This document shows, piece by piece, positions 6,489 to 18,871 of a stretch of 24,001 nt of DNA (positions are counted from its first letter, which is position 1; every line of letters starts with the position of its first letter). The stretch comes from Bdellovibrionales bacterium (GTDB taxonomy: Bacteria; Bdellovibrionota; Bdellovibrionia; Bdellovibrionales; UBA1609). The DNA is taken from contig JAYUVI010000024.1 of the NCBI GenBank assembly GCA_043754135.1, positions 1 through 24,001 of the forward strand, written 5' to 3'. The position numbers and the translations under genes are program-made. The notes below the pieces were generated by a model. That model saw nothing but the letters and a program-made list of their open reading frames with translations. It had not been told where the DNA came from and ran no database searches.

Positions 6489-6851
6489 ATGGGAATCGCA
6501 CAAACACAGAAATTAACTGAATCAGACCCTGCTTGGCATGAAAGACTCAAAAAAATAGTGGCGCGTGCGCTACTAGTTGAAAAAAATATAGTCGTTTATG
6601 TATTTGGTTCCTACGCTGCGGGGCGCTTCACCTCTAGCTCTGACCTCGACATTGCTATTGTGATTCCTGACAATCTCAGCGTCAAAGATTTCTACAGTTC
6701 TCTATTTTCCGCAGGCCCTCTCTCAGATTGGCCATTGGATTTACTCATATTTAAAAAAAGTGACTTCGACAAAAAAAAAGAAATCGGCGGAGTGTGCTTT
6801 GATATCCGCGAATCAGGACTAGAAATCTACCCCAAATGGCAGGTCAAATGA
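6489..6851 (+). CDS. Minimal nucleotidyltransferase (MNT / MntA-like antitoxin)
   Basis: 120 aa with an exact GS-x10-DxD motif (FGSYAAGRFTSSSDLD) and a downstream third acidic residue in PLDLLI. The stop overlaps the HEPN start (ATGA). Confidence 0.88.
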   Translation: MGIAQTQKLTESDPAWHERLKKIVARALLVEKNIVVYVFGSYAAGRFTSSSDLDIAIVIPDNLSVKDFYSSLFSAGPLSDWPLDLLIFKKSDFDKKKEIGGVCFDIRESGLEIYPKWQVK

Positions 6852-7249
6852 CTCCCATCTCGCGCAAGTACAAAAAAGAATATGCTTTTGTTTTGCTTAA
6901 TATTGCGATCGGCGATTTAGAATCTGCCAAAGGTCTGGTTAAAAGTAATCAGGGGCGACCCGAAAACATGCTTTATGCCATTCAACAATCTATGGAAAAA
7001 TGCTTGAAGGCAGTTTTGATTTTTTATGAAATACCTATTCTGCATACACATGACCTTGAAGTTTTAATTTCATTGCTTGCCCCTAAAACTGTGCCACCTG
7101 AAGCTTATAATCTAGGGCAGTTTTCGCAATATGCATCTGTACGTCGTTATGAAGAAGGCCATGAGGAGATTTTGCCTAGCGATATCAAAGCCGCACTCGC
7201 TTTAGGTCAGAAAATTTGTGATTGGGCAAAGGCGCAGCTAGAAGTATAA
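6848..7249 (+). CDS. HEPN domain protein (putative toxin partner of the MNT)
   Basis: Start taken at ATG 6848 (ATGA overlap with the MNT stop). It carries the HEPN-type signature QQSMEKCLKAVL...HTHDLEVL and a C-terminal RRYEEGH (R-x4-H). All-helical, about 133 aa. Confidence 0.85.
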   Translation: MTPISRKYKKEYAFVLLNIAIGDLESAKGLVKSNQGRPENMLYAIQQSMEKCLKAVLIFYEIPILHTHDLEVLISLLAPKTVPPEAYNLGQFSQYASVRRYEEGHEEILPSDIKAALALGQKICDWAKAQLEV

Positions 7250-7284: not shown

Positions 7285-7325
7285 ACGTCCCGCCTTTCGC
7301 CGCGCTATGGCGATCAACGGGACGT
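7285..7325. terminator. Stem-loop between convergent HEPN and trmL genes (possible bidirectional terminator or stabiliser)
   Basis: ACGTCCCG (7285-7292) pairs with CGGGACGT (7318-7325); the inner TCGCC (7297-7301) pairs with GGCGA (7309-7313) around a 7-nt loop. It spans the trmL stop codon and has no clear U-tract. Confidence 0.35.
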
Positions 7326-7808
7326 AACACCCAGCTGCCTCACACCCTCGCCCATCACCATAGCCACGCAATTCGATAAATTAAAACTGCGAATTTTGCC
7401 CGGGAAAGGAATGCTATAAACCTGGTCAGAGAATTCAGCGAGAATATCTTTCGGTATGCCCGTCGTTTCGCGACCAAAAACCAAATGATCGCCTTCGCGA
7501 AACTCAATATCAAAAACTGTTTTCGCCGAACCTGTTTCGATCAAGTGAACGCGCGGGCGCTGCTCCGCAGGCAAAGTGGCCAACCACTCCGCTTTTGATT
7601 TGTAATAAGCGAGATCAAGATTGGGCCAGTAATCAAGCCCCGACCGTTTCACGGCTTTGTCGTCGATAGAAAAACCGAGCGGCCCCACCAGGTGAAGCTT
7701 TGACCACCAACCCACGCATGTGCGGCCGATATTGCCCGTGTTGTTGGGTATTTCGGGCTCCATAAGAACTATATTAAATAGAGTGCGAGGGTAAAATGCG
7801 CTTTTCAT
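7314..7808 (-). CDS. trmL: tRNA (cytidine/uridine-34 2'-O)-methyltransferase, SPOUT family
   Basis: 164 aa with IVLMEPEIPNNTGNIGRTC, LVGPLGFSIDDKAVKRSGLDYW, LVFGRETTGIP and RSFNLSN, all TrmL/YibK motifs. Confidence 0.95.
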   Translation of the reverse strand: MKSAFYPRTLFNIVLMEPEIPNNTGNIGRTCVGWWSKLHLVGPLGFSIDDKAVKRSGLDYWPNLDLAYYKSKAEWLATLPAEQRPRVHLIETGSAKTVFDIEFREGDHLVFGRETTGIPKDILAEFSDQVYSIPFPGKIRSFNLSNCVAMVMGEGVRQLGVTSR

Positions 7809-7851
7809 GAAAACGCATCTTTACATGGCCATAGATATATTTGGCAAAGCT

Positions 7852-8475
7852 TTAAGCCATTTCGGGCAAATAACGAGCGACTTCTTTCCCAAGACCGGTG
7901 AGGGCCAAACGACGACCTTTATCAACAATCAGTTCGAGCTTCATCAGCTCACGATAAAGTTCGAGATCGATGGGCACGATTTCCCGGCCCGAAGATCTAA
8001 ACAGACGACGCACATATGTGACTTGTCGATCGCTCAAGAGTTGCGGTAGTGCCGGCTGACTGCGCATATTCGCCAACCAATCGCCATAAGGAATTCGAGT
8101 CGCAGTTTTCGGTAGCTTGGTCGGGTTGATCGCATAAACCTGCGATAACTGTGAGCCACCATTAGCTAAGCGAACCTCAATATTCTCCTTAAAAAATAAA
8201 CTTTTTTCAGGAGCCATGACCGACACGCCATGAAATTCATCAAGCAATTTGTAAACGAGGTCTGGGGCCTGCAGTACAAGAAGCTCGCCCGGGACTTGGT
8301 CACCGCAATCAGGAGTCGTCGGCATTGTAAACACCGGGTACCCTGATGGCAGTCGATAAACCGTGCCACATGCATAGGCCGATGTTTTTTGCACAACATA
8401 ATTGCGAATTTTTGCGAAATGAACCATGCCCTCAACGAGCGATCCATACACGAATAGTGACAACTCACCTTGCAT
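7852..8475 (-). CDS. Gamma-glutamylcyclotransferase-fold (YtfP/AIG2-like) protein with C-terminal winged-helix-like extension
   Basis: Start taken at ATG 8475 (G-rich SD GGGGGGAAG upstream). It has LFVYGSL, YRLPSGYP, VPGEL, LLDEFHG, QVYAIN and IPYGDW, matching the YtfP-type pattern, followed by about 65 extra aa ending LMKLELIVDKGRRLALTGLGKEVARYL. Confidence 0.8.
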   Translation of the reverse strand: MQGELSLFVYGSLVEGMVHFAKIRNYVVQKTSAYACGTVYRLPSGYPVFTMPTTPDCGDQVPGELLVLQAPDLVYKLLDEFHGVSVMAPEKSLFFKENIEVRLANGGSQLSQVYAINPTKLPKTATRIPYGDWLANMRSQPALPQLLSDRQVTYVRRLFRSSGREIVPIDLELYRELMKLELIVDKGRRLALTGLGKEVARYLPEMA

Positions 8476-8621
8476 AATCTTCCCCCCCACAGAAAAGCTA
8501 AGCCGTAACGAGTCTGCTTTTTTCAAGAGCGACTCAAATATCAAATCGCCATCAAAAGCGCAAATTTCACGCACAGGATTATTTTCTTATCACCGCTTAA
8601 AAAAACTTGTGGAAAAGAAAA

Positions 8622-8897: not shown

Positions 8898-9647
8898 ATG
8901 AAGCTAATTAAATTTGCTATGTCGAGCGCAGTGGCGGCGTCGCTGATCGCGTGCGGCGGTGGTGGTGGCAGCGGCAACGTATCTACTGGCGGTGTGGTGC
9001 TGACTCATTCACAAATCGCTGCTGATTTCGTTCACCGTTTGAATATCGACGCGGGTTTTGATGTAGAACTTGTGAAAACCAACACGCAGCAATCCGATTT
9101 CATTGTTGTGTACGATAATGATTACCGCACTTACGACGCATATGATTTATATGGTTACAACCCTGGTGAAAATATTTCGAGTTATTTGAATCAATATAAA
9201 GATAACTTTTACTACGACTTGATTCCCGATGGTCTCGGTTTCTATCAAGATGCACTAACTGGCATTGTGTTTGAAAAAACTCAACCCTCTTCTAAAGATC
9301 GTTTAAAAATGGCAGCACTTGAAGAAGGTTTGATGATTGATAAAGCTTCTGATGCTTTGAGTGTGCAATTTGGTTTGAGCCAAGAGCGCAGTCATGAAGT
9401 TGCAAAACTTGCAGTGATCTGGCAAAAAACTCCAAAAGAAAGAATGTCAGATGCAGATCACGACAAATTTGCTAAGGAAGTTCTTGGACACACAATCACT
9501 GAGTACAAAAACGCAGTGGCCAAAAAACTTGTAGGCAGTGGCGCAGAACTCAACCAACTCATCGACGATACCGCATCTCTGAACGGCGTGACTCCTGAGC
9601 AAATGAACCAAGTTCTCGACAATGTTTTTGGAGTGTCCATTAACTAG
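8898..9647 (+). CDS. Lipoprotein, unknown function (Tyr/Asp-rich N-half, helical C-half)
   Basis: SD GGGGGAA. Type II signal peptide MKLIKFAMSSAVAASLIA-C (lipobox LIAC) followed by a G5S tether. Segment YDNDYRTYDAYDLYGYNPGENISSYLNQYKDNFYYDL. Confidence 0.85.
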   Translation: MKLIKFAMSSAVAASLIACGGGGGSGNVSTGGVVLTHSQIAADFVHRLNIDAGFDVELVKTNTQQSDFIVVYDNDYRTYDAYDLYGYNPGENISSYLNQYKDNFYYDLIPDGLGFYQDALTGIVFEKTQPSSKDRLKMAALEEGLMIDKASDALSVQFGLSQERSHEVAKLAVIWQKTPKERMSDADHDKFAKEVLGHTITEYKNAVAKKLVGSGAELNQLIDDTASLNGVTPEQMNQVLDNVFGVSIN

Positions 9648-9674
9648 TTTCAATTACTAGCTAGGGAGGCTCAA

Positions 9675-12600
9675 GTGAAACAGCAGGTTAAGTTCGTCGT
9701 CGTAATGATCGTGACTCTAACCTGCGGATGGTCCACTTGGGCTGCCCCTGGTGCTGAACGTCCAGATATTATTCCACTCGATAATGTTCGCCCCGAAGCC
9801 ACAGACTTAGTGTGGAAGGGGCGAGTTCTTCTACCGCAAGAAGCGGCAAAATTAAGAGATAGCGGCACAGATCTTTCGACTATTGACCCTGACAATCGCG
9901 ACGATCTCTGGAAGCCCGACGGCCAACACCCAAAATTCCCGACCGATAGCTCACTTCAATTAAACCCTGATAAACCAGTGCGCTTTGTGGATTTCGTGGC
10001 GTCACCAGTGAAGACTTTTCGCTTCGTCATTCAAGGCGAAGACACCTCTGGCCGATCGCAAATGTACACACTGTTTGTGGCAAAACGCCTCCAAACCTAT
10101 TTATTAAGACGCAATCTCATGCGCAAACTAGGTTACTATGTTCCGCCAATGCAACGTCTGGCACGCGTAGATGTGTCTTTTAAAAATCGCATTCAAATTG
10201 ACGAATCGTTCTTGGGCGATAAACGCAATGGTATAACGTGGAACGCCCTCGGCGATAAAGAATGGATCCTCAACTTCGACGACAAGAACGCCACGACTCT
10301 ACAAATGCAAGATGTGTTGCTTGTCCCGATGAACGATCAATTCGTGAATTTAACTTTTGGCGTGATCAAACCTGACATTAATATGGGCCGTCGCATGATC
10401 AACGCGCTTATTGTGCCGTTCAATCTTGTAGATTTAAAGGAGTCTATCAATGGTTTTCGTTGGCATTCGGCTTCGATTAAAAGCAACTCCTTATATATGC
10501 CGCTTGAAGATGAAGAGCAGTTCACCACCACTATTTCAGATGCAAAATGGGCCATGGCGCGTGTTAACAAACTCACCCGCGCTGATTGGCAAGAGATCGT
10601 GTCTAACGGCTTAGGTTACCCTCAAGAAGCCCAGAAATTACTTGTTGAAAAATTAATCTCTCGCCGCAATGAACTCAATCGCCTCATGAAAACCGGAGTC
10701 GCTGACATTGAGTATAACCCCGCTATTTCTGATGGCGAAAACCTCATCGCCGGTGAATTGAGCAAGGGTGAGTGGCCGGGTATCGCATCTCGCTTAGCGC
10801 AAGTGGAAGACCCTTCACTCATTTCGGGCCCGGAGATGAAAGCCCTTTTAAAATCAAAAGGTATTTCAACGGTTATCGGTGAGCTCGTGAGCAAAATGAA
10901 TACGGAGCTCATCCCTAGTACCGATTTAAGTAAAATCGCTTTTGAAAAACAGCAGGACCGAGTAGTGGAAGACTTTACCCATTTTATTAAGACTGGCGAA
11001 AACGTGAGCCGAGAATTCGGAATGTGGGTCGAGCCGGTTTTTAAAGGCAATGTGATCGCTTCGCGCGAAGTCGTGGCCGGTACTTTTTTGGGTTCAGACA
11101 ACCGCGTACAGTTGGTCGATACTCTTGGCTTTCAAGTTGAAACCGGTCTTCACGTAGGCACCACGGGTTTACCAGCTGGCTTGAGTCTAAGTGGTGGCGC
11201 CCAGGTGTTCTACACGCGTCAGTATTCACATTTAAAGCCACTCCACAGCATTAAGATTTCACTCGAAGAGCCCTATCGTAACATTGTCGTACCGATGATT
11301 AAGCACGAGTGGGCGGCGGGTATTACGCCTGAAGATTTTGAATTGCGCACCGATGAAAAAGAAGAAGATCGCAATAAACGCATCACTGAAGCGGCCAAAA
11401 AATTTAAGACTGAAATGGGCGATGGCGAAAGCTTGATTATTTCAGACAGCATCGGCGGTTCAGCCAACATTCAAGGCGGCTACTCGTTTGCTGATCGTAT
11501 TCGGGCACAAGCCCAATTGGCCGCAAGCATGGTCACATTGAGTCGTTTGCATATCAATAGACGTGGGGATGAAATTCACGTCTACCGTGACTACGGCAAT
11601 ATAAAGTCGTTGCAATTTGTGATTTCACTCAAGGCGCATATCGAAATTCTTAATATGCGCTTCAAACTCAGCAAGGCTAAGGCAACTACCGACTTCTATG
11701 CGATGGATTTATCTGAAGACATAGACGAAAATCCTACTCTCGCTAACACTATGGCCGCCGTACGCAGTTTGCTCCTCACTAATAGTGTCGAGCGCGTAGC
11801 CGCCGTCGTTGAGCCGACGAAACTGGAACACGATTTAAAAGAATCGTCTAGGGACTTACGCTTCTTGATTTGGAATAGCTTCTCGTTAAAATCGCGAGAT
11901 AACCTGAAAATTACTCGCGCTAATGAAGTCGAGCCTGAGTATTATTTGCGGCGCTTGATTGGCTCGCGTTCAGGCAGAGATTATCAAACCGTCGCCGTTG
12001 ATTTGCTCAATGAAATTTTATTTGAACTCACAGATCACGACGTCAACATTAGTAACTCAACTAGCGGAGACCCCGCTGACACGGTGTTTGGTCGCTCGAG
12101 CGCACGATATTCGTTTTTCGAGGGCGAATACACTCCGAAAAATCCATTTTCAGAAATGTTCGTCGGCATTAACTACCGCTGGAAGGGTTGGTCCGCCGGT
12201 CGCAACGTAATTGAAACCATTGTCACTCGATTTTCAGAGCGTTTCGATTTTCAATTCTTTCATCCAGAAGCTTTTCAACAGGTAAAAGTAGCTGAGCTCT
12301 ACAATATGGATCTCACCCTTTCCATTTACGACCGTGGCGTTAAAAGTATTTTGAGTCTGCAACAGGGGCCTTTAACTCGCATTATTGAAAAACATTTTGT
12401 CGGCCGCAACCCGCGCCTTGAAACCCTCGAACTAAAAGCAAAAACCATTCGTACTTTCTTTGCCATTCAGGGTGGCGCGCTAAAGGCCATTCGCGAAAAC
12501 GATTACAACGACGCTGGCGATTACATTGTTAAACTGGTTTCATTGCTAGAATCTTGTCTCGATCACCAAGGCCTACTCGCGGCTGTTGGTGGATTGCAAA

Positions 12601-12794
12601 ACATTCGCATTCAGCCTGTACTTACCGGTTTTATGCGCGGTGAAGACGGTAAGTTTAGTGAAATCCCCATTGAGGGCAATGAAATCGGCCAAGTTGGCAG
12701 TGACCGCCCATGGGGTCCGATGACCACAACACAAAGGGACATCGGTATGACTGAAGCTGAATTCTTCGTTTATTGGTTGATGAGAAAAATATGA
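9675..12794 (+). CDS. Large secreted hypothetical protein (1039 aa); possible atypical-kinase-like N-domain plus beta-rich region
   Basis: GTG start with SD GGGAGG, signal peptide MKQQVKFVVVMIVTLTCGWSTWA, and an uninterrupted 3.1-kb ORF whose stop overlaps the S8 start (ATGA). The CDS is secure; the domain call is tentative. Confidence 0.85.
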   Translation: MKQQVKFVVVMIVTLTCGWSTWAAPGAERPDIIPLDNVRPEATDLVWKGRVLLPQEAAKLRDSGTDLSTIDPDNRDDLWKPDGQHPKFPTDSSLQLNPDKPVRFVDFVASPVKTFRFVIQGEDTSGRSQMYTLFVAKRLQTYLLRRNLMRKLGYYVPPMQRLARVDVSFKNRIQIDESFLGDKRNGITWNALGDKEWILNFDDKNATTLQMQDVLLVPMNDQFVNLTFGVIKPDINMGRRMINALIVPFNLVDLKESINGFRWHSASIKSNSLYMPLEDEEQFTTTISDAKWAMARVNKLTRADWQEIVSNGLGYPQEAQKLLVEKLISRRNELNRLMKTGVADIEYNPAISDGENLIAGELSKGEWPGIASRLAQVEDPSLISGPEMKALLKSKGISTVIGELVSKMNTELIPSTDLSKIAFEKQQDRVVEDFTHFIKTGENVSREFGMWVEPVFKGNVIASREVVAGTFLGSDNRVQLVDTLGFQVETGLHVGTTGLPAGLSLSGGAQVFYTRQYSHLKPLHSIKISLEEPYRNIVVPMIKHEWAAGITPEDFELRTDEKEEDRNKRITEAAKKFKTEMGDGESLIISDSIGGSANIQGGYSFADRIRAQAQLAASMVTLSRLHINRRGDEIHVYRDYGNIKSLQFVISLKAHIEILNMRFKLSKAKATTDFYAMDLSEDIDENPTLANTMAAVRSLLLTNSVERVAAVVEPTKLEHDLKESSRDLRFLIWNSFSLKSRDNLKITRANEVEPEYYLRRLIGSRSGRDYQTVAVDLLNEILFELTDHDVNISNSTSGDPADTVFGRSSARYSFFEGEYTPKNPFSEMFVGINYRWKGWSAGRNVIETIVTRFSERFDFQFFHPEAFQQVKVAELYNMDLTLSIYDRGVKSILSLQQGPLTRIIEKHFVGRNPRLETLELKAKTIRTFFAIQGGALKAIRENDYNDAGDYIVKLVSLLESCLDHQGLLAAVGGLQNIRIQPVLTGFMRGEDGKFSEIPIEGNEIGQVGSDRPWGPMTTTQRDIGMTEAEFFVYWLMRKI

Positions 12795-15700
12795 AAAATC
12801 CTAAATTGTTCTTCGTTAGTACCTTTACATCTTTATTTTGCTTTATAGCTTTTGGGCAGTCGGTGCCTACACTTGAGCCAGAAGCTCCGAGAGTTGAAAA
12901 AGTCACTGTTGTAGTCGAATTCAATGAACCACCCACGGCCGGTGAGCTGGCAGCGTGGGATCGCCGGGGCGTGAAGCTCGAGCGTATTAGCCCCTATCAA
13001 AATAATTATTTTAACCGCGCTTATAGAACTAAGATTAACTTCGCGGACGAAGGTACGCTCGCGAAAAGCCCCAATGTCAGAAAAGTTGAAGAATCACAAA
13101 AAATTATTCTACAGTCGGTGACGGAAGATCCACTTTACGCAGACCAATGGTATTTACAAAACTCGGGTTATGACGTACGCGAAGATATCACAGACATTCG
13201 CTCCGTTCTGCGCCCTGGTCAGGTTGAATTCGATATCGGCTTTCAAAAAGTGAAAATTCAAATTGAAGAAAATCTAAAAGAAGATGTGATCGTGGCTGTG
13301 CTTGATACCGGTGTGGATATTGAACACCCTGACCTTGCCGATAACATCGTAAAAAATGCGGCTGAGTGCGATGGCGATGGGCGCATACCTCTCGGTGAGG
13401 CGACTGAAGACAAAGATGGCAACGGCTACAAGGGCGATTGCGTAGGTATTAACCTCACCACGGCAGTAGCTACGCAAAAAAATCGTCCCTTCGATGATGT
13501 CGGTCACGGCACTCACGTGGCGGGAGTTATTTCGGCCGTTTCTGGCAATGGTCTTGGGCTTAATGGTTTGAGTTCGCACATTAAGATTTTACCAGTAAAA
13601 TTGATTGCTAAAGAAGAATCCAAACAGCGTGTTGCCCTCACCGATCGTGTCGCGGAAGGCATTTTATATGCAGTCGCGCGTGGTGCGAAAGTCATTAACA
13701 TGAGTATCGGCTGGCCTGTGGGTTGGAACACTGACCACGTCTACGAAGCCATTCTCGAAGCTCGTCGCCAAGGCGTATTCGTCGTTGCGGCAGCGGGCAA
13801 TAACAATCACCCTGTACCCACTTACCCTTGTAGTTATGCTCAAGTGATTTGCGTAGGCGCAACTCAAAATGATGGCGCACTGGCCGCATTTTCAAATTAC
13901 GGCGCACAAGTCGATATCGTTGCGCCAGGCGATCGCATTTTAAGCACTTTTCCCACAACTATGGTGCCCAAGTATTACTCTGTGAACGGTTACGAAATGA
14001 AAAATGGCACGAGCCAAGCGGCCCCGATCGTGGCGGCATCTATCGCGGCCCTTGCAGGTAGCCACCCACAAGATCGCTACGAAGAAAGTTTGGCGCGTTT
14101 ACTAGCGCAAACGCAAGTAGTGCGCACAGGTGATAAATACTATTCGCAAGGGCAAGCCCGAGTGGATCTCGCCCTCGCTCCGGTTGCGGCACCTGCATAC
14201 TTGCGTTTCTTATTTAAAGAAAAAGCCATTGTGTCGGTGAATCAACAGCGCGAATTTAAATTGTCGTTTGTAGTGCAAAATCTTTCGTCGCTCTCACAAA
14301 ATGTGAATGTAAAACTCACGACCCAAACGGTGGGCACGAGTTTTATACAAACCGAAAAATCAGTAGTGGCCGAGCCCTGGTCTAACGTGACTTTTGAATT
14401 CGCAGGACACGTCGACAATTTGCTGCGTGAACGCGAACTCAAATTTATCGCGAATATCAATGGCGTCGAAAAAAGAGCGCAATCAATTTTGGCGCTCGAG
14501 CTCGATCAAATGCCGAGTCTACAGAAATGGTCGATACAAAATTCAAAAGATATTAATAATCTTATTAGTGTAGCCGACGTTGATGGCCAAAATCCGGGTC
14601 AGTATTTTAGCAGCTTCAAACGCGCGGAAAGTGGCACAGGTATACAGCTGGTCTTGTGGGAAAAAACAAAAAATCAGCTCGCACAACGGGGTACATCTGT
14701 CTTAGCCGACCTTAAGACTCCGATCGGCTTATTCACCGGAGACGCCAATGCAGACGGCACAAAAGATTTAATGTTACTCGGTCTCAAGGCAGGCACTCCC
14801 AATGCAACTTTAATTATTTATTATTTTAATGGGCAGTTACAACCTCTGTGGCCGGCGCACCCTTATCTGCAAATCAGCGATGAAACCCCGATCTTCAACT
14901 ACGCGCGCTTAGCCGATTACCGGGCGGCGCGCTGGTTTCGCTTACCGGGTTCGGGTTTAGCGAAAGAGCTTCTTGTTCCCTCAATTATAGACAACGCTTA
15001 CAAACCGAAGCTCGATATGTCGCGAGATGAACGTCGTGGTCCGCTTGTAAAAGGTAGTCACGTTTACTACCTCGAGCCGCACTTGAAAGAGGATGGTTCA
15101 CCAGCCTTAAGAGCTCGTATCATCGACAGCTATAATTGGATGAAAACCATTCGCGATGCGCTTGGGCTTTATTATTATGAAGCCATTCAACCCCTGACTG
15201 AATTAGGTGACGGGCATTATCTTTTCTCCGCTGGCCAGTTGCTTAATGCACGATCCATTGAAGTGAAATTAGACAAACAGTTTACTTGGCGAGATCTGAA
15301 GTGGTCGCAAAATTTGATGGGCTATAGATATATAAAATCGGACGCTTATGATGTTACCCCGAATGGCCAACGCCATGAGCTCGATGCCATTTACGGCATC
15401 ATCACGTTGACTCGTTCACATTTGGTATTTGTTGATAGAACTGATCGCTCGCGTATTGTCGACCAGTACACTTTTGATTTGCCAGACGCTTCAGAACAAA
15501 CCCTCAACGCTCTGGTGGTGTCTCGTAGTCCGAATCATATCAAAGTTATACTCGAGTCATTGCAAAAACTTTTCGGCTTTTATGGTCAACCAGGCCAAGC
15601 TCTACAAGTGACAGCCAATGAACTAAGTCGGTCCACATTTTTCGATCAAACTTTCTCGCAAGTGAATTTGCCTATCCAAATGCGCTCGGGCGAAAGCGCT

Positions 15701-15934
15701 CTGTATGTGGATGACACGCAAATGACGAGCAATAACATTTACGTGCAACAGCTCACCGCACAGGCCGGCTTTTTCGCGCCACTCGCCACCAGCATCACAT
15801 TGAGTGAAAATTGTCGCCGCCTAAACCCCGCAAAATGGTCGGGCGAGAACTCTTATCGAATCAACGTTTTATGTCGTATTGGCGCGAAAAGTGATCAGAT
15901 GGAGATTCGTTCTCTCCCAATCGACGCCCAATAA
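12791..15934 (+). CDS. Secreted subtilisin-family (S8) serine peptidase with large C-terminal extension
   Basis: Start at ATG 12791 (ATGA overlap); signal peptide, then a prodomain-like segment. Catalytic triad: VAVLDTGVD (Asp codon 13304), HGTHVAGVI (His 13505) and NGTSQAAP (Ser 14012), with oxyanion AAAGN. The C-terminal ~600 aa include an Ig-like stretch and an FG-GAP/VCBS-like DANADGTKDL. Confidence 0.95.
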   Translation: MKNPKLFFVSTFTSLFCFIAFGQSVPTLEPEAPRVEKVTVVVEFNEPPTAGELAAWDRRGVKLERISPYQNNYFNRAYRTKINFADEGTLAKSPNVRKVEESQKIILQSVTEDPLYADQWYLQNSGYDVREDITDIRSVLRPGQVEFDIGFQKVKIQIEENLKEDVIVAVLDTGVDIEHPDLADNIVKNAAECDGDGRIPLGEATEDKDGNGYKGDCVGINLTTAVATQKNRPFDDVGHGTHVAGVISAVSGNGLGLNGLSSHIKILPVKLIAKEESKQRVALTDRVAEGILYAVARGAKVINMSIGWPVGWNTDHVYEAILEARRQGVFVVAAAGNNNHPVPTYPCSYAQVICVGATQNDGALAAFSNYGAQVDIVAPGDRILSTFPTTMVPKYYSVNGYEMKNGTSQAAPIVAASIAALAGSHPQDRYEESLARLLAQTQVVRTGDKYYSQGQARVDLALAPVAAPAYLRFLFKEKAIVSVNQQREFKLSFVVQNLSSLSQNVNVKLTTQTVGTSFIQTEKSVVAEPWSNVTFEFAGHVDNLLRERELKFIANINGVEKRAQSILALELDQMPSLQKWSIQNSKDINNLISVADVDGQNPGQYFSSFKRAESGTGIQLVLWEKTKNQLAQRGTSVLADLKTPIGLFTGDANADGTKDLMLLGLKAGTPNATLIIYYFNGQLQPLWPAHPYLQISDETPIFNYARLADYRAARWFRLPGSGLAKELLVPSIIDNAYKPKLDMSRDERRGPLVKGSHVYYLEPHLKEDGSPALRARIIDSYNWMKTIRDALGLYYYEAIQPLTELGDGHYLFSAGQLLNARSIEVKLDKQFTWRDLKWSQNLMGYRYIKSDAYDVTPNGQRHELDAIYGIITLTRSHLVFVDRTDRSRIVDQYTFDLPDASEQTLNALVVSRSPNHIKVILESLQKLFGFYGQPGQALQVTANELSRSTFFDQTFSQVNLPIQMRSGESALYVDDTQMTSNNIYVQQLTAQAGFFAPLATSITLSENCRRLNPAKWSGENSYRINVLCRIGAKSDQMEIRSLPIDAQ

Positions 15935-15956
15935 TAGTTTTTACCTAAAAAACTCC

Positions 15957-15988
15957 GCGGAGAGGGCATAAAGATTTGCCCTCTCCGC
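15957..15988. terminator. Strong hairpin closing the lipoprotein-S8 operon
   Basis: Perfect 12-bp stem GCGGAGAGGGCA / TGCCCTCTCCGC with an 8-nt loop, 22 nt after the S8 stop. The T-run lies on the minus-strand side (GGAGTTTTTT), not on the plus side. Confidence 0.55.
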
Positions 15989-16050
15989 AATATTGTGCGA
16001 TTTTAGCCCTTCAATTTTTATTAAAATCAGTACGCGCTTCTGGAGTGAAT

Positions 16051-16512
16051 ATGAGCGAACAGATGACATATATGGGTTATGAGTGGATCAGCGTTGAAGA
16101 TGGCGTCGTCACTGTGGGTTTAACGGAAGATGCGGTGGCTGACTTGTCAGAAGAAGTGACACTTAATTTACCAGACCAAGATGATATCGTAACGGCCGGA
16201 AAAATCTGCGCCGATATCGAATCCGACAATGGCAATTTGAATATCTATTGCCCCGTTTCAGGCACAGTGATCGAAGTGAATGAAGCGGTACTCGAAAATC
16301 CAGATCTTTTACAAGACGACCCGACAGACGAAGGTTGGTTGTTTAAGGTTGAAGCCGACGATCCAGATAAACTCGATAGTCTTTCATTGAAAATGCGCAG
16401 TCAAGACGATGAAGAGGACGATGACGATGACGATGACGAAGATGAGGATGAGGATGAGGACAGCAGCGACGAGGATGATGACGAACCTTCATCTGGCGAC
16501 GATGAGGAATAA
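16051..16512 (+). CDS. Glycine cleavage H-protein (GcvH)-like paralogue lacking the lipoyl lysine, with acidic tail
   Basis: ATG 16051 with SD GGAG. GcvH fold motifs EW..V....VTVGLTE, YCPVSGTVIEVNE, PDLLQDDPTDEGWLFKV. The canonical ESVK is ESDN here, so the gcvH symbol is withheld. Confidence 0.85.
   Translation: MSEQMTYMGYEWISVEDGVVTVGLTEDAVADLSEEVTLNLPDQDDIVTAGKICADIESDNGNLNIYCPVSGTVIEVNEAVLENPDLLQDDPTDEGWLFKVEADDPDKLDSLSLKMRSQDDEEDDDDDDDEDEDEDEDSSDEDDDEPSSGDDEE
16405..16509 (+). repeat. Low-complexity GAY/GAR trinucleotide tract encoding a poly-Asp/Glu tail
   Basis: GACGATGAAGAGGACGATGACGATGACGATGACGAAGATGAGGATGAGGATGAGGAC... encodes DDEEDDDDDDDEDEDEDEDSSDEDDDEPSSGDDEE. Confidence 0.9.
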
Positions 16513-16566: not shown

Positions 16567-16941
16567 ATGAGCACAAGACGCGTGATCATTCGCCTTGATG
16601 GCTATGCGGCGCGCACGACCGAGTTAATGGCGGTAAATGTACCGAAATCGACGCGAATGTATAGCACCTTAAGGTCAGCAGGTATTTTCTGGAGCTGTGC
16701 TTTCGCTGCGATTTTTGTACCCATGTTGCATTTTGTTCTGGTACCTGCATTTATTCTGGCCGGTTTTTTCTTCGCTGCTAATAGTTATCTTGACGACGAG
16801 CGCTTGCAAATAAAAAACCCCGTGAGTTGCGGGAAGTGCGACGGCCTTTTGGTGTTAGTGAATGACAATGACGTCTTTCCGAAATGGGCGCGTTGTGAAA
16901 AATGTCAGGTCGAGCATCGATTTGACTTAAACAGGGAGTAA
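16567..16941 (+). CDS. Small membrane protein (hydrophobic hairpin) with C-terminal zinc ribbon
   Basis: Hydrophobic stretch AGIFWSCAFAAIFVPMLHFVLVPAFILAGFFFAA, then CGKC-x19-CEKC. Confidence 0.75.
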   Translation: MSTRRVIIRLDGYAARTTELMAVNVPKSTRMYSTLRSAGIFWSCAFAAIFVPMLHFVLVPAFILAGFFFAANSYLDDERLQIKNPVSCGKCDGLLVLVNDNDVFPKWARCEKCQVEHRFDLNRE

Positions 16942-16944
16942 AAC

Positions 16945-17337
16945 ATGACTCAAGACAGTTTTAAAAAATTTCAGAGCGTACTTTTGGTATTAGTAATGGT
17001 TGCTGGCGGATTTATGTTCGCTTCGTCGGCTTCAGCATTTGCTTCTGAAACGGTGAAAGGCGCTAAAAAAGATTTGTCACAGTTTAAGACTGAAATGAAT
17101 ACGAAGCTTGAAAAAATAGAAGATGAACTAAAAGAATTGCGTGCTAACGCTAATGAAAAAGGTAGCGATGCAAAGAAGAAGACAGTCTCTGAGCTTGAGC
17201 AAATGCGCGATAATCTGCGCGCCAAAGTAAATGACTTAAGCGAAGACAGCGGCGACGCCTGGCAGAAATTCAAAAAAGGCCTCGCTGATTCGGCTGATGA
17301 ATTGAATGCTAAAATTCAAAATGCTTTAAACAAATAA
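16945..17337 (+). CDS. Secreted all-helical coiled-coil protein (resembles small general-stress / apolipoprotein-like proteins)
   Basis: SD AGGGAG, a signal peptide ending ASAFA, and amphipathic Lys/Glu-rich helices (DAWQKFKKGLADSADEL). It starts 3 nt after the previous stop. Confidence 0.75.
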   Translation: MTQDSFKKFQSVLLVLVMVAGGFMFASSASAFASETVKGAKKDLSQFKTEMNTKLEKIEDELKELRANANEKGSDAKKKTVSELEQMRDNLRAKVNDLSEDSGDAWQKFKKGLADSADELNAKIQNALNK

Positions 17338-17413: not shown

Positions 17414-18871
17414 CTAACCTTCGTCGTCTGATTTTTTTTCGTCGGCTGATTCAGACGCCGCATTTTTTGAAGGGCCAAATTGTGAATTAGTAAATTCACG
17501 GCCATCCCAAGTATAAATACGACCTTCGCCCTCCATCACCGTCGCCACGTGCACAGGTTTTTGCCAAATAGCAAAAACGTTCTCCATAGTGGCTTTCATA
17601 TAATCAGGCTGCATGTCGACGCCTTCGTATAGGTGAGTGAGGAGCAGTTCGCCTTTACTATTAAAGTTGCCGTCTACAACGCTTATAATGGGCATGCCCA
17701 TGTTCGTGATCTGAAACAGAAACTTCTTTTTGATAATGCTAAAATCACGATTGTCGACTTCAAACTGACCAGTTCGTTTGTTAAACCGATAGACGAACAT
17801 TTTATGTTCATGGCAAAAATCTTCGGTCAGAAATTCGTCAATAAAAGTGACATCATTGTAGTCGCGACGCACCTGAAATATTTTTTCACGACCCTTGCCA
17901 GCTTTAGTATCCCAATTCTTTTTTGCATGTAAATCATCACATTCGGCCCACTCTTTGCCAAACTGACCTTTGTTCCAACGTTCTTCAATTTTTCTAAAAA
18001 GCTCGATGCCAATTTTGTACGGGTTAAAGCCTGATGGCGGCATAACGAGAGCGCCACTATGACGATCGGCAAAATCCACAATTTCGCAATCGTGCAAAAT
18101 CTTCTCCGTCATCAGCTTCGCATGCCAGTACGATGCCCACCCCTCGTTCATGATTTTAGTCATACCTTGTGGAGCAAAATAATAGGCCTCGTCACGCACG
18201 ATGCTCAAAACGTCGTACTGCCATTCTTGAAGAGGAGCGTACTCTAAAAGAAATTTCAAAACATCGCGACGCGCTCGTGGTTCTCCAAAGCCGCTGTCTT
18301 TTTGCCCACGCACGTCGCTAGCACTCATGAAATTTTCTAATGTTCGTTTCGGTGCCGGGCGCTTTTTGTAAACGCCGTGAGCATCGATGAGATTTTCGAT
18401 GCTTAAGCACTTATCCACAAAATCTTCGACTATATCCACACCGAGGTGGTCTATGTGTCGGCGTATTCGAATCGCGTGATTGGCCATTTGGTCGATCATT
18501 TTGCGATTGGTTTGCGAAAACCAAAGATTGTTTTTAAAAAAATCAGAGTGACCATAAACGTGAGCCATCACCAGTTTCTGATCAACGGTGTCGTTGCCCT
18601 CCATCAAATAGGCGTAGCACGGGTCATTATTGATCACGAGTTCATAAATTTTCGATAGCCCATACTCATAACTACGTGAAAGCTGTTCGAAATCCATACC
18701 AAATCGCCAGTGGGGAAAGCGCGTCGGGAAGCCCCCCTTAGCAGCCACTTCATTCAACTGCTTCGCTGTCACCATTTCAAAAACGGTTTCAAAAAAATCG
18801 AGACCAGCGGCACGGGCCTCGCCCATGATTTTTACGCGATATTTTTCAAGTTCGAGCGGTAAGTTAGCCAT
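17414..18871 (-). CDS. spoVR: SpoVR/YcgB family protein
   Basis: 485 aa with GFPTRFPHWRFGMDF, SKIYELVINNDPCYAYL, VMAHVYGHSDFFKNN, PQGMTKIMNEGWASYWH and NPYKIGIELF. Confidence 0.93.
   Translation of the reverse strand: MANLPLELEKYRVKIMGEARAAGLDFFETVFEMVTAKQLNEVAAKGGFPTRFPHWRFGMDFEQLSRSYEYGLSKIYELVINNDPCYAYLMEGNDTVDQKLVMAHVYGHSDFFKNNLWFSQTNRKMIDQMANHAIRIRRHIDHLGVDIVEDFVDKCLSIENLIDAHGVYKKRPAPKRTLENFMSASDVRGQKDSGFGEPRARRDVLKFLLEYAPLQEWQYDVLSIVRDEAYYFAPQGMTKIMNEGWASYWHAKLMTEKILHDCEIVDFADRHSGALVMPPSGFNPYKIGIELFRKIEERWNKGQFGKEWAECDDLHAKKNWDTKAGKGREKIFQVRRDYNDVTFIDEFLTEDFCHEHKMFVYRFNKRTGQFEVDNRDFSIIKKKFLFQITNMGMPIISVVDGNFNSKGELLLTHLYEGVDMQPDYMKATMENVFAIWQKPVHVATVMEGEGRIYTWDGREFTNSQFGPSKNAASESADEKKSDDEG

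Follow-up and report, generated by a model that had tools for sequence, protein, structure and literature searches.

What does a protein of the glycine cleavage H family do once it has lost the lysine that carries lipoate? This question is raised by a gene on the forward strand, at positions 16051-16512 of a 24,001-nucleotide stretch of DNA from the metagenome-assembled genome (MAG) of a Bdellovibrionales bacterium (assembly GCA_043754135.1, contig JAYUVI010000024.1, positions 1 to 24,001), referred to below as the window. The initial annotation described the gene product as a repurposed GcvH paralogue that cannot be lipoylated at the canonical site and ends in an acidic tail. This description is well supported by the existence of a lysine-less clade and of a canonical gcvH in the same genomes. 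The gene belongs to a conserved and expressed family of GcvH paralogues, maintained by purifying selection and confined mainly to one order of Bdellovibrionota. The proteins keep the GcvH beta-sandwich and have lost the lipoyl-lysine, together with what surrounds it in the lipoylation hairpin and further canonical invariants; the GcvH-like protein cannot carry lipoate at the canonical site. On balance, the family is best read as a neofunctionalised, non-lipoylated GcvH scaffold whose polyanionic tail would bind basic partners, a reading judged slightly more probable than not, whose mechanism is inferred.

The open reading frame encodes 153 amino acids, from an ATG to the stop codon at 16510-16512. 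A GGAG sequence at 16042-16045 lies 5 nucleotides 5′ of the ATG, and the start agrees with the N-termini of the relatives, which follow the pattern M-x-[DE]-x-x-x-Y-M-G-Y-E-W. The Pfam family GCV_H (PF01597) matches residues 10-112, encoded at 16078-16386, with 91 bits against a cut-off of 22.2 (E = 6.8e-26), and among all PDB chains searched with phmmer, the significant matches are H-proteins only. Gapless HMMER alignments over residues 9-112 to the H-proteins of T. maritima (2KA7, 1ZKO) and E. coli (3A8I) set the query I-E-S-D-N-G-N opposite I-E-S-V-K-A-A of the solved structures. As a result, codon 60 (AAT, 16228-16230) falls in the lipoyl-Lys column and encodes Asn, as the initial annotation had proposed. 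The fold is predicted with confidence: in an AlphaFold2 model that used 30 aligned family sequences, the predicted local distance difference test (pLDDT) exceeds 90 for residues 11-110, and the top 22 matches of the model in a Foldseek search of the PDB are all H-proteins.

The second part of the protein is the tail, residues 117-153 (16399-16509), which is predicted to be disordered from its composition and its pLDDT of 52-65. From about residue 117 onwards it contains 29-31 Asp/Glu in 35-37 residues, so the earlier description of a nearly pure Asp/Glu tail of about 35 residues is accurate. An imperfect tandem GAC/GAT/GAG repeat at 16405-16484 encodes it. The calculated net charge of the protein at pH 7 is about -52, of which the domain contributes about -25 and the tail about -27. 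Sequence and length of the tails differ across the family, and what is conserved is their composition (77-100% D/E); among the relatives the length ranges from 0 to 43 amino acids. A fixed aromatic anchor motif in the tails was considered and rejected: F, Y or W occurs in 56 of 111 tails at scattered positions, and the tail of the window's protein has none.

The likeness to canonical GcvH (PF01597, TIGR00527; structures 1ZKO/2KA7 and 3A7L/3A8I, and Bd0683 of Bdellovibrio bacteriovorus) amounts to 29-36% identity, a TM-score by target of 0.75-0.81, the gapless alignment and a shared set of structural core residues. The differences are the missing lipoyl-Lys, scores below the equivalog cut-offs of NCBIfam (96.4 against 117 for NF002270; 82.6 against 115.85 for TIGR00527), the absence of a gcvT/gcvP context, the D/E tail and a separate position in the tree. 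When 32 canonical and 27 paralogue sequences of the same phylum are compared column by column, the positions at which the two groups part become visible. W12, G23, L40-P41, P68, G71, E75, N77, D90 and W96 are core residues common to both. About 13 canonical invariants are replaced in the paralogues, including H10, Q29, G33, G44, F53, V55, V59, K60, A61, V62, S63 and N88, and in most paralogue members L32 and S58 are changed too. The initial annotation considered the H-protein pattern to be otherwise intact; this holds for the residues that determine the fold and fails for these canonical invariants, which are changed family-wide. The hairpin around the modified lysine, S-V-K-A-V-S in canonical proteins, has become [ST]-D-x-G-[PN]-L, with G61 conserved in 100% and D59 in 78% of the paralogues. 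In the window's protein the remodelled tip is E57-S-D-N-G-N-L-N64 (16219-16242), where N60 replaces the lipoyl-Lys and G61 is the family-invariant residue. At the former Lys position itself the relatives vary freely between N, S, A, Q, E, D, G and R.

The extent of the family was estimated in several collections. Among 5.8 billion clustered proteins, 164 relatives were recovered, and in the 120 listed, the site holds N, S, A, Q, E or D and in no case (0 of 120) Lys. Nearly all of these 120 carry an Asp/Glu tail of 20-43 residues, and a small subgroup has a short acidic end peptide instead. The names attached to them are Bdellovibrionales or Bdellovibrionota and include cultured Bdellovibrio strains. 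Likewise, none of the order-level genome loci examined encodes Lys at the site. When 1.84 billion cluster representatives were searched exhaustively with a profile, only 16 clusters reached E <=1e-30; the family proper is therefore small. Lys is absent in 69 of the best 150 cluster representatives of that search; a few of these come from other Bdellovibrionota, "Deltaproteobacteria" MAGs and Acidisphaera, and the clusters from outside the order score much lower than the family proper. GcvH-like proteins without the Lys thus occur more widely, under the annotation GcvH. Some Lys-less GcvH-like domains were also seen within longer proteins or repeated two to three times (P0135, 1391 amino acids; P0150, 413; P0185, 417; P0189, 502).

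Among 120 Bdellovibrionota genomes of at least 90% completeness, 119 contain a canonical-scoring GcvH (130-163 bits with Pfam GCV_H), and many contain a second, lower-scoring copy. This sample contains 23 genomes of the window's order, and 22 of them give a strong match (at least 113 bits) to the profile of the Lys-less family. In a broader sample of the order, 23 of 41 genomes have a strong match; these belong to families f1, f2, f5, f26, f27, f30, f31 and part of f3 and f4, and no strong match was found in families f24 and f28 of this sample. Two genomes of the window's genus, G036 and G118 (99% complete), carry both the Lys-less and the canonical copy, and the canonical gcvH of G036 lies directly after gcvT. 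For the domain, pairwise dN/dS (the ratio of non-synonymous to synonymous change) comes to 0.02-0.09 at saturated synonymous sites, which indicates strong purifying selection on the gene.

A maximum-likelihood tree of 73 distinct domains, which is unrooted and does not give the order of events, resolves three clans. The first contains the canonical Lys-bearing copies (support 100/99), the second the Lys-less paralogues of the order (97/90), and the third, apart from both, those second copies that belong to other families of the phylum (100/98). Within the second clan, the window's protein lies in a 98/99 subclade together with proteins from same-genus and same-family genomes, and it shows the features of the clade: the hairpin [DE]-[ST]-x-x-G (here E-S-D-N-G), no Lys and an acidic C-terminus. 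This answers the check that the initial annotation had suggested, namely whether Lys-less copies form a clade in genomes that also have their own canonical gcvH, which they do. Besides these, some Bdellovibrio genomes carry a third GcvH copy within the canonical clan (G082:C1:2627885-2628193 and G098:C5:181094-181438; L093 and L094). In one of these the lipoyl-Lys has become Arg (S-V-R-Q-I-H-D), and one lies in a 288-amino-acid open frame.

The expression of the family can be followed in B. bacteriovorus HD100, in which the orthologue is Bd0266 (254423-254839, coordinates matching NC_005363). Related genes of this strain are glnA (Bd0267), glnB (Bd0268), the canonical gcvH (Bd0683) beside gcvT (Bd0684), and gcvP (Bd0692). 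In the data of Karunker et al. (2013, Table S1, PMC3627812), Bd0266 rises from 1.4 reads per kilobase per million (RPKM) in the attack phase to 2163 in the growth phase. In the same study the corresponding values are 1.5 and 269 for glnA, 48 and 1542 for the canonical gcvH, 11 and 5041 for the histone Bd0055, and 10 and 3313 for ribosomal protein S6. Bd0266 is a strongly expressed growth-phase gene, well above glnA. The fold changes reported by Lambert et al. (2010, Table S1, PMC2797640) are 0.96 for Bd0266 at bdelloplast entry and 9.4 in host-independent growth (p = 6e-19), compared to 1.09 and 32 for glnA and 0.84 and 1.1 for glnB. In RNA-seq assemblies from three independent studies, single contigs span glnA and Bd0266 at a depth of 50-167, with 0-14 in the downstream region; such contigs show presence and not one single transcript. 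The RPKM of Bd0266 is about 8 times that of the upstream glnA (locus L098 of HD100, NC_005363 254423-256326), although the RNA contigs bridge both genes, which points to an internal promoter or to unequal stability of the transcripts. Bd0266 appears in no main text in the literature searched. It was not seen in the portions available of the supplementary tables of the proteome and histone papers (PMC12546842, PMC10627809), nor was it found in the small supplement of 10.1101/2025.09.24.678257, and with its few tryptic sites this has no bearing on whether the protein is absent.

In the favoured reading, the GcvH-like protein would work without lipoate and outside the shuttle of glycine cleavage and lipoyl relay. 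It would be a soluble cytoplasmic polyanion that acts through its extreme negative charge, in which the rigid GcvH fold may serve as a scaffold, tether or handle, and the disordered Asp/Glu tail may use electrostatic contacts to engage, compete for or shield basic surfaces. The partners of the protein may be nucleic-acid-binding or other basic proteins, towards which it could act as a competitor, solubiliser or chaperone, in the manner of the acidic C-terminal region of the delta subunit of Bacillus RNA polymerase. Ancestrally it would have been expressed with glnA as a growth-phase gene, without depending on type I glutamine synthetase (GS-I) or PII. The initial annotation had offered a polyanionic nucleic-acid mimic or chaperone as one of its suggestions; this is the most plausible direction, and the specific role is not borne out beyond inference. 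Two further facts, the ancestral link to glnB-glnA and the high growth-phase expression, were out of sight for the initial annotation.

The comparison with delta describes what such a mechanism could look like. The delta subunit of B. subtilis (RpoE) consists of a folded N-terminal domain and a disordered acidic C-terminal region with a net charge of -47, and it displaces nucleic acids (PMC7749165). The GcvH-like protein, with its 153 amino acids and charge of about -52, similarly joins a folded domain to a disordered acidic C-terminal region. The fold of delta (HARE-HTH, sigma-1.1-like) is unrelated to GcvH, and the likeness is an analogy of mechanism only, not of membership.

Several points weigh against the favoured reading. 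The proposed electrostatic mechanism is derived from composition and analogy. Several subclades end in only 3-10 acidic residues and have no long tail, therefore the long tail is not essential to the core function of the family, which may reside in the domain or the hairpin. The conserved remodelled hairpin (D59, G61) hints at a specific rather than a generic interaction. The close linkage to glnA that most lineages show may stem from a role specific to nitrogen, to which the favoured reading possibly gives too little weight. Finally, the window's own MAG (548 contigs, 85.8% complete) contains gcvP, and neither canonical gcvH nor gcvT was found in it by HMM and tblastn searches at that completeness. 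Since the MAG is incomplete and gcvT and gcvH are adjacent in a same-genus genome, the missing pair is read as an assembly gap, not a loss; the coexistence of the canonical copy and the paralogue in the window's organism is thus deduced from genomes of the same genus.

The nitrogen-specific role is the rival explanation that survives best, and it is nevertheless unlikely. It holds that the gene is the third of a glnB-glnA operon and that its product binds or regulates GS-I or PII, or acts in ammonium assimilation. In most lineages of the order, the more diverged copies of family f25 included, the gene lies 10-110 bp 3′ of glnB (PII) and glnA (GS-I), as the last of the three. In the 41-genome sample, PII and the paralogue occur together in 12 genomes, at one locus in 9 of them. 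The RNA contigs that bridge glnA and Bd0266 and the induction of both genes in host-independent growth point in the same direction, and PII is known to bind BCCP, a biotinyl-domain protein of related fold. An obligate partnership with GS-I and PII is nonetheless ruled out by presence and absence. The same sample contains 10-11 genomes with the paralogue and without PII, and 7 genomes with PII and without the paralogue, and in family f26 the paralogue lies on other contigs than glnB. In several lineages glnB-glnA has gone from the locus and the paralogue is kept there under selection; in the checked genomes of these lineages, which are 98-100% complete, GS-I and PII are gone genome-wide and a type III glutamine synthetase is present instead. 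The window's lineage fits this description, as its MAG contains only a type III-like fragment (C401:2-1192, reverse strand), and no PII was found in it. The roughly eightfold excess of Bd0266 over glnA and the lack of co-induction of glnB also speak against this role. Moreover, the SecA-SpoU-GGACT and SpoVR genes are equally conserved neighbours, and the linkage may be inherited gene order. The glnB-glnA linkage is ancestral and frequent, not obligate.

The replacement of glutamine synthetase is an observation in its own right. The lineages without GS-I and PII encode a type III-like enzyme of about 745-780 amino acids (G036:C5, G014:C1, G022:C1, G006:C43), and the same-genus genome G118 has GS-I and no type III match. 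Within one order, and even within one genus, the type of glutamine synthetase thus seems to have changed repeatedly.

A more specific form of the polyanion proposal is rather improbable at present. It regards the family as a bacterial counterpart of the eukaryotic acidic-tail chaperones or of the delta subunit of Firmicute RNA polymerase, handling a basic client during growth in the prey. An abundant growth-phase polyanion would then be available when replication and ribosome synthesis surge inside the prey, with the GcvH fold recruited as a tether; its clients might be HBb, the Bdellovibrio histone (Bd0055-type), ribosomal proteins or RNA polymerase. HBb is co-expressed in the growth phase and is present in every paralogue-bearing genome searched, including the window's MAG (84% identity). 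A search with the Bd0055 protein, however, finds it in 105 of 121 genomes of the phylum and in all genomes of the order, including those whose paralogue has no tail and those that have no paralogue, and its distribution therefore does not discriminate. The Pfam PF00808 scan detected a histone in 20 of the 121 genomes, at the edge of its sensitivity. A predicted complex of the HD100 histone dimer and the HD100 paralogue scored 0.03, which speaks neither for nor against the interaction.

The initial annotation had also suggested a decoy or regulator of lipoate ligases or of GcvT/P. In this explanation the protein mimics the apo form of the H-protein and occupies LipB, LplA or LipA, or the P and T proteins, and its probability is low. 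The GcvH fold and shared surface residues (E57, Y66, P68, E75, N77) are kept, and the partners of the canonical glycine cleavage system are encoded in the same genomes. A mimic is disfavoured by the replacement of the whole hairpin and of the H-E-W and A-Q..L-G positions: the S-V-K-A-V-S segment around the modified Lys, H10, Q29 and G33 are exchanged for non-conservative and partly variable residues, and the Lys site itself varies freely. Neither gcv nor lip genes are associated with the gene: the Pfam scan of window ORFs identified neither gcvT or gcvP nor any gene for lipoylation, as had been stated before, and no association with gcvT/gcvP or lip genes was seen at any paralogue locus examined. 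The canonical copy, on the other hand, does adjoin gcvT, as gcvT-gcvH in G036 and Bd0683-Bd0684 in HD100. The growth-phase level of Bd0266, above that of canonical gcvH (2163 vs 1542 RPKM), would also be odd for a regulator.

The protein could alternatively act as a buffer of cations or polyamines, in which some 57 carboxylates bind Mg2+, Mn2+, Ca2+ or polyamines during intraperiplasmic growth; this has only a small likelihood. The extreme charge density of both domain and tail, the conservation of tail composition without that of sequence, and the high growth-phase expression are what a buffer might show. Against it stand the lack of any recognisable metal-binding motif, the existence of tail-less subclades, and a strongly conserved folded domain (dN/dS <0.1) which a simple buffer would not need.

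It is very improbable that the protein is still a carrier, with lipoate or another modification at a different residue (K51 or D59) and a function in glycine cleavage or a related shuttle. K51 is conserved in the window's subclade and D59 in the 78% of the family mentioned above, and in the sister clan of the tree second GcvH copies, some of which keep Lys, lie beside a radical-SAM enzyme of the MiaB/RimO type. K51, which the initial annotation had singled out as a site to check, fails as a candidate: the alignment shows it absent from most of the family, and the AlphaFold2 model places it at the hairpin's base, away from the tip. In addition, the canonical invariant H10 is lost, E11 is not conserved across the paralogue family, the equivalog cut-offs are failed, and no modifying enzyme is linked to the gene in this order. 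The sister-clan copies themselves (L076-L090, e.g., G083:C2, G037:C11, G079:C4) mostly have no Lys, and those that keep it show E-I-E-G-E-K-Q-N-F; they are typically followed by a protein of about 420 amino acids with only a HisKA domain and then by the MiaB/RimO-type methylthiotransferase. The last explanation, a decaying duplicate or an error at codon 60, has next to no probability and is ruled out by conservation, the low dN/dS, intact reading frames and expression, while the same class of substitution in more than 120 independent assemblies and the absence of Lys in close and distant relatives alike remove both a sequencing error and a recent mutation as causes.

Other GcvH-fold proteins are known to have left glycine cleavage. 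An example is GcvH-L of S. pyogenes and S. aureus (PDB 5A35), a second GcvH-fold paralogue with a new role, encoded in an operon with SirTM and a macrodomain protein. Its match to the GcvH-like protein is weak in sequence (E = 2.9e-5) and stands at rank 21 in Foldseek. As described in PMC12440151, GcvH-L keeps its lysine and carries lipoate; the paralogue family, in contrast, has neither the Lys nor SirTM, macrodomain or LplA2 neighbours, and it has the acidic tail. The chlamydial TIGR03077 "not_gcvH", NF045810 "GcvH_rel_desulf" and LbpA of sHdr sulfur oxidation are likewise GcvH folds outside glycine cleavage. The window's protein falls far below the cut-offs of the first two models (50 vs 144.05 for TIGR03077; 33.3 vs 150 for NF045810), and LbpA proteins, unlike the paralogue, are lipoylated on a conserved Lys, as described in PMC6067878 and 10.64898/2026.10.01.755906.

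The surroundings of the gene follow the gene order of its relatives. To the left of the locus in the order lies a divergent GGACT-SpoU(-SecA) block, and to the right, often, a convergent SpoVR-DUF444-PrkA operon. In the window, Pfam and synteny identify the conserved left border as the SpoU methylase and GGACT genes at 7314-8574 (reverse strand) and the conserved right border as the SpoVR gene at 17414-18871 (reverse strand), the first of the convergent operon. The locus thus fits the slot SpoU-GGACT, (glnB-glnA), gene, SpoVR-DUF444-PrkA, with glnB-glnA missing, as in G036. Their place between GGACT and the GcvH-like gene is occupied by a three-gene subtilase operon at 8898-15934 (forward strand), which encodes 249-, 1039- and 1053-amino-acid S8 subtilase proteins. 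Between the subtilase gene and the GcvH-like gene, a hairpin scan and direct reading revealed a hairpin with a 14-bp stem at 15955-15990, which is likely a terminator separating the two transcription units. A promoter scan gave no sigma-70-like site upstream of the GcvH-like gene, and an Rfam scan of the window gave no riboswitch or other RNA family.

Downstream, at 16567-16941 (forward strand), lies a gene for a 124-amino-acid membrane protein with a C-terminal CxxC...CxxC ribbon and no Pfam family. By tblastn it is 36% identical to the product of a 141-amino-acid gene 3′ of the paralogue in the same-genus loci L006, L046 and L047, and any link to the paralogue would be tentative. Between this gene and the convergent SpoVR-DUF444-PrkA operon lies a gene at 16945-17337 (forward strand) for a 130-amino-acid protein, which has an N-terminal hydrophobic segment and a match to the stress-response domain of the NCBIfam sll1863 family (8e-13). 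With the ancestral glnB-glnA included, the neighbourhood resembles a cluster of nitrogen and stress genes. Further upstream, at 6489-7249 (forward strand), overlapping genes for an NTP_transf_2 nucleotidyltransferase (120 amino acids) and a HEPN-domain protein (137 amino acids) have the architecture of an MNT-HEPN toxin-antitoxin pair; it is inserted between secA and the SpoU gene and is not found at that position in the relatives L002 and L006.

Both the fold and the family name are known. As a Lys-less, polyacidic clade linked to glnA, the family has not been characterised in the literature searched, which yielded no description of a Lys-less, acidic GcvH in Bdellovibrio or elsewhere. In databases it goes by the name "glycine cleavage system protein H". 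When the metabolism of predatory bacteria is reconstructed, a non-functional carrier can consequently be counted as GcvH, and in incomplete MAGs, such as that of the window, the paralogue can be taken for the sole H protein. The family also provides a clean case in which a cofactor-carrier protein loses its cofactor site and stays under strong selection and high expression. With growth-phase transcript levels like those of a ribosomal protein, Bd0266 is an accessible target in the model predator B. bacteriovorus, and its partner could reveal both a new function of the GcvH fold and a component of the predator's growth programme.

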